From a phage, in assembly GCA_014630515.1 (NCBI GenBank), contig GCA_014630515.1_4091.1: a DNA stretch of 21,344 nucleotides; one strand, given 5' to 3'. The position numbers were made by a program, and so were the translations under genes. The notes beneath the pieces are model-generated. The model saw nothing but the letters and a program-made list of their open reading frames with translations. It did not search any database and was not told the origin of the DNA. Of the stretch, positions 4,075 through 21,344 are shown piece after piece (the first letter of the stretch is position 1; each line of letters starts with the position of its first letter).

Positions 4075-4166
4075 GATACACTTCCGCACCCTATGGGTCA
4101 GTGAGTTATCTCTCAATGGATATATAATAGCAAAGGGACTGACCGGAGTCAATCCCTTTTTTAATC
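4075..4166 (-). repeat. repeat element B: conserved leader motif, embedded promoter, GC hairpin with T-run
   Basis: core GCACCCTATGGGTCAGTGAG; hairpin AAAGGGACTGACCGGAGTCAATCCC plus T6; minus-strand TTGACT, 17 bp, TATTAT (4124-4152). Confidence 0.6.
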
Positions 4167-4170
4167 TTTT

Positions 4171-4755
4171 TTATCGTGTTACCTTACTTGCTGCCACATC
4201 ACGCTTTTTATAGTACTGATTCCAGATATTGCTGGTTAAACCGTAATCAAGTACTTTAATAAGTCCATTACGATCCTGGCCGATATTCTGTTTTCTGATA
4301 TCTCTTATCGTTAGTGTTGATAATGTATCATCGACGTGTTGTAGTGCATCAGCAAAGCGGTGCTGGCGTTCAATGGCATTACGTTTAATATTGTACTTTA
4401 ATTCGTTGCACGCGTTAACGTGCTTCACACTGCCTTTGCTTGCAGTACTCAACCGATCCATAACGATAAACATATTATCAGGATCGCATAAATGCATATG
4501 CACCTTTGCAAAGTACTGTTTCAACTGAGGGCGGTCATAGTCTAAAAAATTCCATACCTTACATTCAGTTTCATTTTGTTCTACACCCGCATCACAATTC
4601 GCGACCTTAATCACTAACCGATCATTTAAAGCGAATACTATACGGGAAGAACCAGCACCGATGATCTCCAGGCCAGCTAACCGACAAGCTGAAAGGATCT
4701 CTTTGTTGGTTTCCATTTCTGACAGTGTACGGATGAATTTAGTATAATTACGCAT
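4171..4755 (-). CDS. protein-kinase-like protein (194 aa)
   Basis: ATG 4753-4755; AAGGAG SD 8 nt upstream; translation has glycine-rich IGAGSSR, lysine in VIKV, catalytic-loop-like IRDIRKQN and DFG-like VLDYG in the expected order. Confidence 0.6.
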   Translation of the reverse strand: MRNYTKFIRTLSEMETNKEILSACRLAGLEIIGAGSSRIVFALNDRLVIKVANCDAGVEQNETECKVWNFLDYDRPQLKQYFAKVHMHLCDPDNMFIVMDRLSTASKGSVKHVNACNELKYNIKRNAIERQHRFADALQHVDDTLSTLTIRDIRKQNIGQDRNGLIKVLDYGLTSNIWNQYYKKRDVAASKVTR

Positions 4756-7075: not shown

Positions 7076-7160
7076 TAGATACATTTATGCACCCGGTGGG
7101 CTGATTTGTTTCTATGCGTATATAATAGCAAAGGGACTGACCGGAGTCAATCCCTTTTTC
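7076..7160 (-). repeat. repeat element C: conserved leader motif, embedded promoter, GC hairpin with T-run
   Basis: core GCACCCGGTGGGCT; hairpin AAAGGGACTGACCGGAGTCAATCCC plus T5; minus-strand TTGACT, 17 bp, TATTAT (7122-7150). Confidence 0.6.
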
Positions 7161-9166: not shown

Positions 9167-9464
9167 TATTTTAACCTCATTATAAAAATACTATAGTACT
9201 GTAACGCGACAAGTATATTACTTGTTCTTACTTTTTCCAATCCATACGACACGACATATTCATCCCCATATGTGCGGATCACCACACCATGAAAATTTTT
9301 ATACACTTCCACTACTAATCATAACCTTTCGTCTAACCAACTGCATAGAATTATACTACTTTACGCAAATTGATCAAGTATTGATCAGATCATTTTTTGA
9401 TCAATATTAGACAGCTACATTTGTGCACCCTATGGGTTAGTGACGTTCTCGTCTTGATGTAAGT

Positions 9465-9493
9465 ATTATGCCAGTACTGGCATAATTTGTCAA
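9465..9493 (-). promoter_or_regulatory. sigma70-type promoter followed by conserved leader motif (element E)
   Basis: minus strand TTGACA, 17 bp, CATAAT; leader 9421-9460 carries the GCACCCTATGGGTTAGTGAC core; the nearest downstream gene is ~290 nt away. Confidence 0.5.
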
Positions 9494-9497
9494 TAGA

Positions 9498-9695
9498 TTA
9501 TTTTAACTTTTTTCTGTCATTGATTAATGCTTTCAGTACTATACTAATAACTTGCAATGATTCATCAATGACTATGAAATTATTCTCTTTCATTAGATGA
9601 TAGTTACCATTGATTGTATATTCTAATGAGTATTGTTTACGTTTAATTTTTGATAATGTATCAATTTGTTTTTGTACTGATTTCATGCTAATCAT
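9498..9695 (-). CDS. hypothetical protein (65 aa)
   Basis: ATG 9693-9695; AGGA SD 9 nt upstream; no clear own promoter. Confidence 0.55.
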   Translation of the reverse strand: MISMKSVQKQIDTLSKIKRKQYSLEYTINGNYHLMKENNFIVIDESLQVISIVLKALINDRKKLK

Positions 9696-11805: not shown

Positions 11806-11892
11806 TTACACTTCCGCACCCGGTGGGCTAGTGAGCTATCTCTCAATGAATATATAATAGCAAAATGGCTGACCGAAGTCAACCACTTTTTT
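11806..11892 (-). repeat. repeat element D: conserved leader motif, embedded promoter, variant hairpin
   Basis: core GCACCCGGTGGGCTAGTGAG; hairpin TGGCTGACCGAAGTCAACCA with compensatory changes relative to A-C; T6 on plus strand; minus-strand TTGACT, 17 bp, TATTAT (11854-11882). Confidence 0.6.
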
Positions 11893-15880: not shown

Positions 15881-16180
15881 TTATAAACAATTAATTACGC
15901 CAGTGAATGTAACTTTCTCTGTATCCATTACAGTGACAGAACCGCGTTTACTTTTTGCATCGTAATAGATGGTCGTGCTACCCTGATCATCTTCTTCATG
16001 GTACGGGCCATTAGCAAACATTGCAGGGGCCAGTTCCAGGGATTTGGTAACGATCTCAGCCGTTTCCTCGTTAGTCATTGCAACAGTGCACTGAATGAAT
16101 TTTTCTTTCGGTACATCAACGGAAGCGTTAACAGCGAAAGAGGAAACAGATAAAGCCAGGGCGATGATTGCAGTTTTCAT
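15881..16180 (-). CDS. small secreted or periplasmic protein with N-terminal signal peptide (99 aa)
   Basis: ATG 16178-16180; N-terminus MKTAIIALALSVSSFAVNA has Lys then hydrophobic core then AxA-like site. Confidence 0.7.
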   Translation of the reverse strand: MKTAIIALALSVSSFAVNASVDVPKEKFIQCTVAMTNEETAEIVTKSLELAPAMFANGPYHEEDDQGSTTIYYDAKSKRGSVTVMDTEKVTFTGVINCL

Positions 16181-16230
16181 TTGTATATCCTTTGTTAGTA
16201 CTAGGGAGTATTCCCGATTAGATGTAAAAC

Positions 16231-16258
16231 ATTATACGCATTTAAAAACTATTATCAA
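16231..16258 (-). promoter_or_regulatory. early sigma70-type promoter
   Basis: minus strand TTGATA, 16 bp, TATAAT. Confidence 0.5.
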
Positions 16259-16293
16259 GTACTTTAATATAAAAGTATTTGAAAAAAAAAGTC

Positions 16294-16322
16294 TTGACAA
16301 CTGCATCCAGTACTGGCATAAT
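16294..16322 (+). promoter_or_regulatory. plus-strand sigma70-type promoter
   Basis: plus strand TTGACA, 17 bp, CATAAT; only clear plus-strand promoter inside the gene array. Confidence 0.5.
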
Positions 16323-16328
16323 ACTTAC

Positions 16329-16425
16329 ATAAAGACGAGATAGTCACTAACCCACAGGGTGCATAGATCCGTCTATTAAATGATTCAGTACTGCAAAATA
16401 AAGGGGATCGTTTGATCCCCTCTGT
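16329..16425 (+). ncRNA. candidate small RNA (plus strand) carrying the conserved leader motif
   Basis: starts ~7 nt after the 16294-16322 promoter, contains GAGATAGTCACTAACCCACAGGGTGC, ends at hairpin 16402-16421; no SD-preceded ORF. Confidence 0.3.
16393..16421 (-). terminator. rho-independent terminator (minus strand)
   Basis: minus strand AGGGGATC-aaac-GATCCCCT followed by TTTATTTTG; 5 nt after stop of 16427..16648. Confidence 0.65.
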
Positions 16426-16426
16426 A

Positions 16427-16648
16427 TTACTTAGTAAGATATAAACAAAAATCACCTTTCTTTGCTACGCCGCCAGTGTAACGCGATGAATAGTTAGAAA
16501 CGTCTTGCACTTCTGCAATGACGAGCGTATCATCATTTATTTCGTCGCAAAAACATACTGCGGGATCTTCTACGCCAATATTGTCAGCATGTGCCCGCAT
16601 AGATTTAACCAGTGCTTCAAGCTGGGAAAGAGTAGTGATATTAGCCAT
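16427..16648 (-). CDS. hypothetical protein (73 aa)
   Basis: ATG 16646-16648; AAGGAG SD 8 nt upstream. Confidence 0.7.
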   Translation of the reverse strand: MANITTLSQLEALVKSMRAHADNIGVEDPAVCFCDEINDDTLVIAEVQDVSNYSSRYTGGVAKKGDFCLYLTK

Positions 16649-16699
16649 TGTAAAACTCCTTATTAGTGGGGAGAACCATTTCTCCCCTTGATGTAAACT

Positions 16700-16727
16700 A
16701 TTATACAGTACTGGAAACTAATTGCAA
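16700..16727 (-). promoter_or_regulatory. early sigma70-type promoter with 5' stem-loop
   Basis: minus strand TTGCAA, 16 bp, TATAAT. Confidence 0.6.
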
Positions 16728-16735
16728 GTACTTTT

Positions 16736-18444: not shown

Positions 18445-18526
18445 ATAGATACATTCCCGCACCCTATGGGCTATCGCCTTGTGTCCGGCTTGTAAGTATT
18501 ATCTCACTAAGCCGGATAACGGTCAA
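18445..18526 (-). repeat. repeat element G: promoter with conserved leader motif and flanking inverted repeat
   Basis: minus strand TTGACC, 17 bp, GATAAT (18498-18526); inverted repeat CCGGCTT/AAGCCGG brackets the -10; leader has CCCATAGGGTGCGGGAATG. Confidence 0.5.
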
Positions 18527-19663: not shown

Positions 19664-19898
19664 TACTTTCTACATGTACTTTTAAAATAGTTTTCTTTCT
19701 ATATAGGGGAACTATTATTCAGTACTATCATTCAGTACTGAATCAACCAAATCACTACTACACCCCATAAAACGGCCTCAGACGCATTCTAACGCATTAA
19801 TACACCTAAGCTATACATTTGCACCATTCCAATCATTCCAGGGCTTTACGGGCCGTTTAAACGCGTTAAATTATTTTCAATTATTTTGTTTTTAGGTA

Positions 19899-19926
19899 TT
19901 GACTTGATCCTGAAAAAGCGTATAAT
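19899..19926 (+). promoter_or_regulatory. plus-strand sigma70-type promoter
   Basis: plus strand TTGACT, 16 bp, TATAAT; followed by conserved leader motif GACGCGAGAAAGCGGATACCCCAGGGGGTGGGAAG. Confidence 0.55.
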
Positions 19927-20113
19927 TACTACATAGACGCGAGAAAGCGGATACCCCAGGGGGTGGGAAGATCCGTCCAAAATTCAAGATATAAAAAAAG
20001 GATAGACTCCCGCACCCTAGCAGGTTAACGCACTTTCTCAGTACTGAATTATAGTACCATAGTCCGGCCCAGGATGGCAAGCAAATTAATTAAAACTTTT
20101 TTCATCCAGGGTA

Positions 20114-20141
20114 TTGCTTTATTTTTCCAGTACTGTATAAT
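20114..20141 (+). promoter_or_regulatory. plus-strand sigma70-type promoter
   Basis: plus strand TTGCTT, 16 bp, TATAAT; followed by leader motif GTCGAGAAAGACTCAAGCCCACCGGGTGCATAG. Confidence 0.5.
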
Positions 20142-20239
20142 AGTTCCATCAAGTCGAGAAAGACTCAAGCCCACCGGGTGCATAGTTACGCCCAAAATTC
20201 AGTACTGAAAAAAATTTTTAAAAATATCCGTCCAGGCCG

Positions 20240-20268
20240 TTGACATTGCCCCCAGTTTATAAGATAAT
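20240..20268 (+). promoter_or_regulatory. plus-strand sigma70-type promoter
   Basis: plus strand TTGACA, 17 bp, GATAAT; points into the iteron-like region. Confidence 0.5.
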
Positions 20269-20359
20269 GATTCCAGATTCAGAAAAATCTAACTCCAGAT
20301 ACTGCGGGGAAACTATCCCCACGCGGTAGGGGAACTATTGGAAAAAACAAAATAAAATT

Positions 20360-20480
20360 TTGATTTAGCCGTCTATACTTCCAGACGTGTAACCATCTAG
20401 CCGTTTAGCCGTCCAAACGTCTAGCCATCCAGCCATCCAGAAATCTAGACGTTTAGCCGTCTAGATGGATAGCCATCTTT
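20360..20480. repeat. iteron-like direct-repeat array
   Basis: 7 copies of YAGCCRTY within ~115 bp (TTTAGCCGTC at 20364, 20404, 20452); also CTAGACGT/CTAGATGG and ACTTCCAGAC repeats; preceded by A-rich tract 20341-20360. Confidence 0.5.
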
Positions 20481-20879
20481 ACTTCCAGACTTCTGGAGGG
20501 CTAGACATATCTACGTCCAAAATCCATCCAGGGTAACTACGCCCAAAATCCGTCAGTACTATACCATAGATCTATCTTTTGAAAGGGAGTATTCAGTACT
20601 GCCATCATAGCCCTCACTATGTTACCCTAGGAGGATGAAGACTATCATGTAGTACTGAATACTGTTAGAGGGAATCCACCAGCACAAGCTGGTGGCATAA
20701 TGCTTTAGATTAAAATCAGTACTGACACCATTCTGTTAATATCAGTACTGTTATTACGATTTTCATATGAGGTTCAAAAAGATGTACCACCACAGGAGGA
20801 ACTATCTTTTCTGTACTGTCTCACGACAGGAGGTAGAGTAAATGAATTGTTCGCAGCAACTCATCTCTCTATGTAGAAC

Positions 20880-20907
20880 ATTATACAGTACTGAATCATA
20901 ATGTCAA
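20880..20907 (-). promoter_or_regulatory. minus-strand sigma70-type promoter in ORF-poor region
   Basis: minus strand TTGACA, 16 bp, TATAAT; no ORF over 60 aa downstream. Confidence 0.5.
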
Positions 20908-21242
20908 TAACTTTCTTTCATTATTCAGTACTGATATTCTTGAGAACTACCCGTCTACAAACATCATTATATCCCACAAATCATAAACGTCCCAACGTAA
21001 ATTTCAACTTTCGAAGATCCAACTTTTATTTCATAGGTACTCCAAAATTTTTAGGATCGAGATTTAGGATGGAGTACTAACCAACTTTTTGCTGGAGCCT
21101 CAAGGGGTAATGGAATTTTACCCCGACGGGTAAAAGGGTAATTGTAATTAAGGTGAAAGTAATAATTCAGTACTAATCATTGCGTGATTACTTTTGATTA
21201 CATTTGATGTAATTTGAAAAATGGAAAAGGAGCTTGGAAACT

Positions 21243-21268
21243 AAAAAGTACGGCAGACTTCCTCTGCC
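21243..21268 (-). terminator. possible rho-independent terminator (minus strand)
   Basis: minus strand GGCAG-aggaagt-CTGCC followed by GTACTTTTTAG. Confidence 0.4.
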
Positions 21269-21271
21269 TAC

Positions 21272-21344
21272 TTAGTGACATATCAGTACTGCTACGTTCT
21301 TGATTAAACGTGAACATTCCTGTACTCTAGTACTCACTACTGAT
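21272..21344 (-). CDS. possible 3' end of a minus-strand gene entering from the right edge (partial)
   Basis: open frame from window edge to TAA 21272-21274, followed 4 nt later by the 21243-21268 hairpin; too short to assess. Confidence 0.3.
   Translation of the reverse strand, partial: SVVSTRVQECSRLIKNVAVLICH

Follow-up and report, generated by a model that had tools for sequence, protein, structure and literature searches.

Why should a near-consensus promoter point against the genes that surround it? The question is raised by a 21,344-nucleotide stretch of phage DNA (GenBank assembly GCA_014630515.1, contig GCA_014630515.1_4091.1), here called the window, in which about 50 small genes are arrayed on the minus strand together with highly repeated intergenic modules. 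At 16294-16433, a plus-strand unit made of a promoter, a conserved leader motif and a hairpin converges on the minus-strand gene 16427..16648. A preliminary description of this unit proposed either a cis-antisense regulator of that gene or an independent small RNA. The independent small RNA fits the comparative evidence, in which the module recurs in phages RaK2 and Munch with T-runs on its own strand, whereas the cis-antisense regulator found no support. We favor the small-RNA reading over the antisense one and, going by sequence comparison, hold with moderate confidence that 16294-16433 is a self-contained small non-coding RNA gene belonging to a repeated cassette family.

The unit starts with a sigma-70 promoter that matches the consensus at 11 of 12 positions, as the preliminary description had it (TTGACA, 17 bp, CATAAT). 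Its 17-nucleotide spacer contains the palindrome CAGTACTG (16308-16315), and the A-rich stretch at the position of an UP element is kept in the copies of G17, RaK2 and Munch. Across six aligned copies the -35 TTGAC and the -10 ATAAT are invariant. Of 71 distinct family members, 63 have a promoter that matches 10 or more of the 12 positions at this place, compared to 3.75% of 57-mers drawn at random from these loci; in the family, as here, it ends approximately 6-7 nucleotides before a conserved cAT. This CAT lies at a constant distance from the -10 box across copies, and its A (approximately A16329) is the predicted transcription start.

Is the transcribed part more than a stretch of leader? 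The conserved leader motif that had been noted in this region of about 100 nucleotides, CCCACAGGGTGCA at 16351-16363 on the plus strand, is part of a longer element that a covariance model recognizes with 57.7 bits. There are eight copies of its core in the window, six on the minus and two on the plus strand. Allowing up to three mismatches, the leader motif has nine matches where 2.2 are expected, and eight of them are good; a covariance model built from 37 copies (R1) matched exactly those eight sites. The nearest paralog of the unit, at 9419-9504 on the minus strand, is 83% identical. From G17, RaK2, Munch and IMG/VR contigs (including 121Q, RaK2 and a GAP32-sized genome) we collected approximately 70 distinct copies, 57 at first, across 121Q/G17, RaK2, Munch and GAP32-like phages, and the phages in which the element is conserved infect hosts of four genera. 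The copies share one plan: a sigma-70 promoter, the cAT, a first hairpin (hairpin 1) with a purine-rich loop, a linker of four to five nucleotides, the core R-CCC-AYM-GGG-UGC, six variable bases, an RTCYAT box and, a few bases on, AGTACTG. The orientation of the element relative to its own promoter is always identical.

Hairpin 1 carries most of the evidence for RNA structure. In a listing made without any model fitting, more than 12 different complementary stem sequences occur, among them GAC/GTC (this copy), GTC/GAC, GAG/CTC, GCC/GGC, GGC/GCC, AGCA/TGCT, AGAC/GTCT, CCAC/GTGG, GCCG/CGGC, CAAA/TTTG and ACCG/CGGT. In the model alignment, the three inner pairs are Watson-Crick or G-U in 89-98% of copies, with three to four pair types each. 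The covariation score of 0.352 compares with 0.135 in shuffles (0 of 500 reach the observed value) and with 0.014-0.056 for slid partners. An all-against-all mutual-information scan returns three hairpin 1 pairs at the top, 9-33, 10-32 and 8-34 (mutual information 1.58, 1.27 and 0.62). In this copy hairpin 1 has a stem of three base pairs and a six-nucleotide loop, within the family range of 3-5 bp and a purine-rich loop of 6-8 nucleotides, and begins five nucleotides from the predicted 5′ end. The covariation, read from aligned sequences, indicates selection on RNA structure.

The second hairpin (hairpin 2) coincides with the core, which reads ACCCACAGGGTGC in this copy (16350-16362) and fits the invariant R-CCC-AYM-GGG-TGC. 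Across the 70 distinct copies its CCC and GGG do not vary, and the pair that closes it alternates, A-U in 36 and G-U in 34, as RNA pairing would lead one to expect. The RTCYAT box follows six nucleotides after the core (CCGTCTAT, 16369-16376) and then comes AGTACTG (CAGTACTG, 16386-16393); a (T/C)AGTACTG followed by an A-rich spacer is kept in those copies of several genera that point against the genes. The mutual-information scan found no covarying partner for the 3′ box, and no third helix or pseudoknot, whether pairing the loop of hairpin 1 with the UAUCU box or the 5′ end with the 3′ box. For this copy, RNAfold offers an alternative outer helix, AGACG/CGUCU, which is not kept in paralogs with a CCGTC box and in the 121Q ortholog of the copy at 9424. 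RNAalifold on plain MAFFT alignments recovered hairpin 2 only: indels in loop length put hairpin 1 and the terminator out of register, which is why we turned to a covariance-model alignment.

How are the copies placed relative to genes? Judging gene orientation from open reading frame (ORF) content within ±1.5 kb, we find that 42 copies point with the genes. None of these 42 has a terminator-like hairpin within 130 nucleotides; another promoter or a gene comes next. The other 28 copies point against the genes, and in 14 of them a GC-rich hairpin lies approximately 23-25 nucleotides after the element; eight of the 14 also pass our T-run rule. Their hairpin stems vary (GGGGATC, GGGGAG, GGGAGAC, GGGAAGC, GGGGGC, GGGGA, CAGTACTGG). 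Most of the remaining antisense copies occur in convergent unit pairs. The unit at 16294 falls in the class of antisense copies with a hairpin. The antisense module of promoter, element, spacer and hairpin is also present in G17, RaK2 (two copies) and Munch, always within a minus-strand array and abutting the 3′ end of a gene. Throughout Asteriusvirus, the orthologous site keeps both the antisense orientation and the exact architecture. The neighboring genes in RaK2 and Munch are unrelated, and G17 has the same neighbor gene with a different terminator stem; the module is thus conserved independently of the gene beside it.

The unit is closed by a GC-rich hairpin shared between the two strands, with predicted energies of -14 kcal/mol for the plus-strand RNA and -16 kcal/mol for the minus-strand RNA. 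On the minus strand it begins five nucleotides past the stop codon of 16427..16648 and runs into TTTATTTT; with a 7-8-bp stem and this U-tract it has the features of an intrinsic (Rho-independent) terminator, so that its earlier assignment as the terminator of this gene holds. Our terminator scan missed the hairpin, in our reading because the rule it applies lets the stem continue into the T-run. The plus-strand tail, UCUGUAUUACUU, has seven U in 12 and is interrupted, a poorer U-tract than that of the minus strand; the own-strand tails of the copies in relatives are better (TTTGTTTT in RaK2 and TTTGTGTT in Munch). On the sequence, the hairpin is probably a bidirectional terminator and the 3′ end of the plus-strand RNA. 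The convergent gene is real, having an AGGAG Shine-Dalgarno sequence and a protein 93% identical to G17_00045. No homolog of it is detectable at the matching position in RaK2 or Munch, where the abutting genes show no significant similarity. Unless there is read-through, the overlap between the plus-strand RNA and the mRNA of this gene consists of the 20-nucleotide terminator hairpin only.

These data suggest the following model. Host sigma-70 would start the RNA near A16329 from the near-consensus promoter. The 5′ domain of the RNA would comprise hairpin 1 with its purine-rich loop, the hairpin 2 core CCC-AYM-GGGUGC and the RUCUAU box; AGUACUG and an A-rich spacer would follow, and transcription would end, at least partly, at 16402-16421, to give a product of about 95-105 nucleotides. 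Where a cassette points with the genes, the same domain would form the 5′ end of long early transcripts; where it points against them, the terminator would close it and a free small RNA would be released. The working part would be the conserved 5′ domain and not complementarity to the neighbor gene: because the domain also heads sense transcripts, the conserved function must lie in the domain itself. Our inference is that a protein recognizes this domain, be it a host factor or an early phage factor. Transcription, the efficiency of plus-strand termination and an action in trans are likewise predictions; the efficiency of plus-strand termination is doubtful in the window and in G17.

It is tempting to go one step further. 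RaK2- and 121Q-like jumbo phages might tag the 5′ ends of the transcripts from their strongest host RNA polymerase promoters with a structured RNA, and in addition make free tag RNAs of about 100 nucleotides that recruit or titrate a protein. The tagged promoters would lie in the first DNA to enter the cell, and the free tag RNAs would come from the antisense cassettes. The protein in question might be an RNase, an RNA chaperone, a defense sensor or RNA polymerase itself, the last in an RNA-based antitermination. We put this forward tentatively, as an idea with a smaller chance of being right than the small-RNA gene itself; if true, the phages would possess a multi-copy regulatory or decoy RNA of a new class.

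Several observations weigh against the small-RNA reading. The alignment used for the formal covariation was fitted to the structure of the model, which favors that structure, and the model-free stem listing offsets this bias only in part. Hairpin 1 is just 3 bp in this copy, whose minimum-energy fold prefers the alternative helix, and approximately one-quarter of the family are short forms with a weak AU hairpin 1, none of it convincing. Hairpin 2 never varies, and its invariance is equally compatible with a site that acts at the DNA level. Finally, the plus-strand U-tract is interrupted in the window (TCTGTATT) and worse still in G17, so that termination may be leaky or partial and the 3′ end is uncertain.

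A leaky terminator leads back to antisense action, in the form of transcriptional interference: read-through RNA or polymerase collision would reduce the output of 16427..16648 and of the genes that lie upstream or, in a variant, the plus-strand promoter would block read-through into 15881..16180. The convergent layout with a common terminator agrees with this, the weak plus-strand U-tract here and in G17 makes read-through plausible, and the convergent unit pairs of relatives, which have no terminator between them, would make collision or an RNA duplex unavoidable. We nevertheless consider interference unlikely. The partner gene is not conserved, the convergent genes of RaK2 and Munch being unrelated to it; six of the eight window copies (42 of 71 overall) share the direction of the genes, and those cannot be antisense regulators; and the copies of RaK2 and Munch have good T-runs on their own strand. 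Interference also needs a promoter only, and would not account for the conservation of the transcribed element or for the covariation of its hairpin, which antisense copies show too (stems GAC/GTC, GCC/GGC, AGC/GCT, AGCA/TGCT, AGACA/TGTCT). About equally unlikely, in our judgment, is a promoter-proximal site that modifies RNA polymerase (of the lambda nut/boxB, HK022 put or qut/ops type), where a factor on the nascent hairpins would confer resistance to termination and the short terminated RNA would be made by default, as the 6S RNA of lambda is from PR′. The element always lies 5-40 nucleotides downstream of a strong early promoter in fixed orientation, the sense copies head multi-gene units that reach to the next terminator, and a promoter and terminator within about 100 nucleotides are familiar from lambda PR′-tR′; the hairpin 1 loops GAGAUA, GAGAAA and AGAACAA resemble those of boxB. 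Against such a site, the unit lacks a boxA-like GCTCTT, stems of 3-5 bp with loops of 6-8 nucleotides differ from the 5 bp and five nucleotides of boxB, and at least eight copies per 21 kb are unlike any known nut, put or qut system. Antitermination of this copy would, moreover, carry transcription antisense across five early genes, where the plus strand offers no ORF, and no partner similar to N, Q or RfaH came to light, although no search was aimed at one.

Two further explanations, both of them quite improbable to us, dispense with an RNA function for this copy. The plus-strand copy might have arisen by accident, through inversion or duplication of a mobile cassette of promoter and terminator similar to the PeSL elements of T4-type phages, such cassettes mattering as promoters and as recombination substrates. 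An array of small ORFan genes with highly repeated promoter and stem-loop modules between them is a suitable setting; four sense copies with the -35 box inside a terminator-like hairpin show the composite PeSL layout (PMC2839356, PMC4122927), and G17 carries an extra gene with a promoter/leader repeat right beside the unit. As an account of how the repeats behave in the genome, a PeSL-like cassette does well. An accident, however, would not explain the orientation and architecture retained at the orthologous site throughout Asteriusvirus, nor the recurrence of this architecture, with a constant spacing between element and hairpin, in RaK2, Munch and GAP32-like phages, and the covariation of a transcribed hairpin shows that RNA structure is under selection, something that recombination between PeSLs has no need of. 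Alternatively, CCCAYMGGGTGC and the RTCYAT box might be binding sites on DNA for a phage or host protein, as an operator or iteron. The 12-nucleotide core is fully invariant, the 3′ box (CCGTCTAT, ACGTCCAA) is similar to the repeats at 20366-20521 and to ACGYCCAAAAT at 20512 and 20540, and the AGTACT that flanks the element is a DNA-level motif, 19-fold enriched and also found inside genes. Yet hairpin 1 covaries as an RNA helix, G-U pairs included, the element is strictly bound to the direction of transcription, and the core has no DNA palindrome beyond CCC-N3-GGG. The distance from promoter to core varies by about seven nucleotides, which argues against an operator, normally found at a fixed distance from the promoter.

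Could the element belong to a known family, or encode a peptide? A scan of the whole window with the Rfam 15 covariance models, at E-values up to 10, gave no match at any of the eight copies, and ARAGORN found no transfer RNA or transfer-messenger RNA. There is no conserved ORF on either strand of the unit: an 11-codon frame starting with ATG (plus strand) and a 63-amino-acid ORF starting with GTG (minus strand, 16264..16455) are open in the window, and both are broken by stop codons in G17, RaK2 and Munch. Host mimicry was rejected, with no match in 5,426 Escherichia coli genomes; one match to a marine metagenome-assembled genome among genome contigs fits the pattern by chance and goes unrecognized by the model. 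Readings of the core as a CsrA (GGA) site, DnaA box, integration host factor site or extended Shine-Dalgarno sequence, judged by eye, fail at key positions that are not conserved across copies. In searches of the literature on promoters, non-coding RNAs and transcriptomes of RaK2, 121Q, PBECO4, Asteriusvirus and Alcyoneusvirus, we came across no account of the element. We list the features of the unit and its surroundings in Table 1.

Table 1. Coordinates of the plus-strand unit, its neighbors and the copies of its core in the window
Feature	Position	Strand	Basis or remark
Divergent promoter TTGATA-16-TATAAT	16231..16258	-	repeat family D17; promoter of gene 15881..16180
A9 tract at UP-element position	16282..16290	+	read from sequence; lies between two divergent promoters
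Sigma-70 promoter TTGACA-17-TGgCATAAT, 11/12	16294..16322	+	promoter scan and direct reading
-35 box TTGACA	16294-16299	+	
TG of extended -10	16314-16315	+	
-10 box CATAAT	16317-16322	+	
Extended -10	16314-16322	+	
Predicted transcription start, A of conserved cAT	16329	+	predicted, 7 nt after -10
Conserved transcribed element	16327-16378	+	covariance model from paralogs, 57.7 bits, E = 2e-12
Hairpin 1: GAC 16334-16336, loop GAGATA, GTC 16343-16345	16334..16345	+	stem covaries across family
Hairpin 2 and invariant core A-CCC-ACA-GGG-T, then GC	16350..16362	+	family core CCCAYMGGGTGC
3′ box CCGTCTAT	16369..16376	+	variant of family consensus GTATCTAT (RTCYAT)
Palindrome CAGTACTG and A-rich spacer CAAAATAAA	16386..16401	+	read on the minus strand, the terminator U-tract
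Hairpin GGGGATC-GTTT-GATCCCC (16403-16420) plus A-T pair	16402..16421	both	predicted energies
Plus-strand tail CTGTATTACTTA	16422..16433	+	TCTGTATTACTT when T at 16421 is counted; interrupted U-tract
Convergent 73-aa gene	16427..16648	-	neighbor, outside the unit
Minus-strand core copies	2169, 4085, 7088, 9424, 11815, 18458	-	
Plus-strand core copies	16351, 20170	+	

The window is a 121Q-like Asteriusvirus region, early or terminal-repeat. Over the 1.4 kb surrounding the unit, the Escherichia phage 121Q is 97% identical, and approximately 40 further Asteriusvirus jumbo phages match the same 1.4 kb at 84-88% identity. In vB_Ec-M-J, Muenster and fENko-Kae01, the homologous stretch lies within a few kilobases of the record start or in an annotated direct terminal repeat. 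The window has 24 promoter-like sites that match 11 or 12 of the 12 positions, where mononucleotide shuffles give 0.91, and 20 of these sites are on the minus strand. The four on the plus strand are that of the unit, one at 4719, which is probably due to chance, and two beyond 19.9 kb. The minus-strand promoter at 16231..16258 stands back-to-back with that of the unit and forms its left boundary.

Several side observations concern the copies themselves. A ninth, divergent plus-strand copy lies at 19899-19985 (TTGACT-16-TATAAT; CGC-GAGAAA-GCG; CCCCAGGGGGTGG; CCGTCCAA) and is faced by a degenerate minus-strand copy, GCACCCTAGCAGG, at approximately 20005-20080; the two form a convergent pair, and both fall under the model threshold. 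Similar convergent pairs, spaced by about 150 bp with no terminator between, occur in relatives (L001 6098+/6166-, L003 24549+/24628-, L013 12531+/12599-, L015 6060+/6139- and L005 1248+/1334-), and the two RNAs of such a pair would be mutually complementary. Fur-box-like sequences (e.g., GAGAATGATAATCATTTAC) are found between or beside several of these pairs. With up to four mismatches in 19, such sequences occur 19 times in the fetched loci, compared to 1.5 expected over all sequence scanned; 17 of the 19 are in RaK2, Munch and two related contigs, and one lies between L003 24549+ and 24628-. No Fur-box-like sequence of this kind lies in the window.

Other copies differ around the promoter. 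At 18496-18524 and in its homologs in L003 and L015, a 7-bp inverted repeat (CCGGCTT ... AAGCCGG) flanks the -10 box and marks one promoter subtype; its distal arm is the 5′ arm of hairpin 1, and the repeat could be an operator or an alternative structure. Four sense copies, those with elements at 2169, 4085, 7088 and 11815, have their -35 box (TTGACT) inside a GC hairpin, AAAAAGGGATTGACTCCGGTCAGTCCCTTT (2210-2240, 4130-4161, 7128-7159 and 11862-11889, minus strand). By its sequence, this hairpin would end the upstream transcription unit, making a PeSL-like composite of terminator and promoter. In G17, which we compared with the window (L001 3384-3810 against 16181-16293), there is an extra small gene, G17_00044, together with an extra promoter/leader repeat. 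The insertion adjoins the plus-strand unit on its left and is a single case of an indel boundary between close relatives; it fits indel formation via recombination between repeated promoter/leader modules.

The surrounding array has repeats of its own. Nearly all the small minus-strand genes (e.g., 16649-16735) have a common 5′ module, AAGTACTTGCAA-N-CAGTACTGTATAAT and then TACATCAAG, which continues with a GGGGAGAA...TTCTCCCC hairpin, the Shine-Dalgarno sequence and ATG. The repeat families D1-D8 of this module have 15-23 copies each, and the GGGGAGAA...TTCTCCCC hairpin is a second conserved leader hairpin, separate from the plus-strand RNA element. The AGTACT palindrome occurs 133 times in the whole window where 6.9 are expected, and CAGTACTG 42 times where 0.27 are expected; 47 of the AGTACT sites are within coding sequence, and the motif is found in promoter spacers, just 5′ of -35 boxes and 3′ of the RNA element. 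The E. coli Chi sequence, GCTGGTGG, is present nine times compared to 0.28 expected, with eight sites on the minus strand (2118, 3581, 4984, 7062, 8309, 9772, 15014 and 20676) and one on the plus strand (20688). The oppositely oriented pair 20676/20688 is close to the right end of the window, and two other Chi sites lie directly downstream of the element copies at 2169 and 7088; the sites may protect a terminal region from RecBCD. Also toward the window end, in the ORF-free 19700-21344, we find at 20366-20521 an array of repeats with a period of about 8 bp (CGTCTAGC/CATCCAGA, 16-bp unit TCCAGACGTCTAGCCA) and ACGYCCAAAAT motifs at 20512-20522 and 20540-20550. The repeats look like the 3′ box of the RNA element (CCGTCTAT, ACGTCCAA).

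The non-coding RNAs of jumbo phages have hardly been studied. The distantly related PA5oct has two abundant ones, without known function, and they too lie in the terminal repeat (PMC7318152). The element described here adds a covariation-supported RNA with eight copies in 21 kb of DNA that is probably transcribed early. If it binds a host or phage factor, it would show how these phages organize or protect early gene expression. If it is only a promoter cassette, the annotation is still corrected, ORFs having been called across the unit, and the modular shuffling of the region is explained. The cassettes also offer compact, strong promoter-terminator parts, and the covariance model is ready for use on other genomes.

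How does the unit compare with known systems? The OOP RNA of lambda is a short sigma-70-dependent phage antisense RNA that is convergent with cII and ends at an intrinsic terminator; its action depends on complementarity to the 3′ coding end of its target, which it overlaps. The unit resembles it in that it would give a short sigma-70-driven RNA directed against an early operon and ending, probably, at an intrinsic terminator. In contrast to OOP, it overlaps its neighbor only in the shared hairpin, the neighbor is not conserved, and we found neither extended complementarity to a target mRNA nor co-conservation with a target gene; it also belongs to a multi-copy family whose conserved 5′ domain occurs in the sense orientation as well. 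Stem-loops placed 1-5 nucleotides from the 5′ end, of the type found in the ompA 5′ untranslated region, protect transcripts from 5′-end-dependent RNase E. Hairpin 1 likewise begins 1-5 nucleotides from predicted 5′ ends, although such stabilization would leave the invariant 12-mer and the free-standing, terminator-closed copies unexplained.

Like lambda nut and HK022 put, the element places small hairpins within the first tens of nucleotides of early transcripts and, like lambda PR′-6S RNA-tR′, the unit has a strong promoter followed by a terminator that would give a short RNA. It departs from nut (boxA/boxB) in that 16323-16433 contains no GCTCTT (boxA CGCTCTTA or TGCTCTTTAACA), and from boxB, with its 5-bp stem and five-nucleotide GNRA-like purine loop, in the 3 bp and six nucleotides of hairpin 1 here; unlike nut and put, it is present in at least eight copies per 21 kb, some of which point against the genes. 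CsrB/CsrC and Qrr1-5 are also paralogous RNAs with one conserved structured motif and strong promoters. The family differs from them in carrying its motif once per RNA, with no GGA or other known binding motif, in being phage-encoded and in doubling as the 5′ end of mRNAs, and its partner is hypothetical. The PeSL elements are another parallel: both are repeated intergenic units with a near-consensus early sigma-70 promoter and a GC stem-loop in plastic regions of small ORFans, and the single case in G17 may point to a location beside indels between close relatives, as for PeSL. However, PeSL consists of a stem-loop plus promoter only (PMC2839356, PMC4122927), while the family adds a transcribed domain of about 50 nucleotides with a covarying hairpin and an invariant 12-mer, and in the antisense copies the stem-loop follows the RNA (here approximately 80 nucleotides downstream of the promoter) instead of preceding the promoter. 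As an RNA motif family the element is new, but it belongs to a kind of feature that is familiar, the phage small RNA or 5′ leader on a promoter-terminator cassette, and its unusual traits are its high copy number and its use in two contexts.

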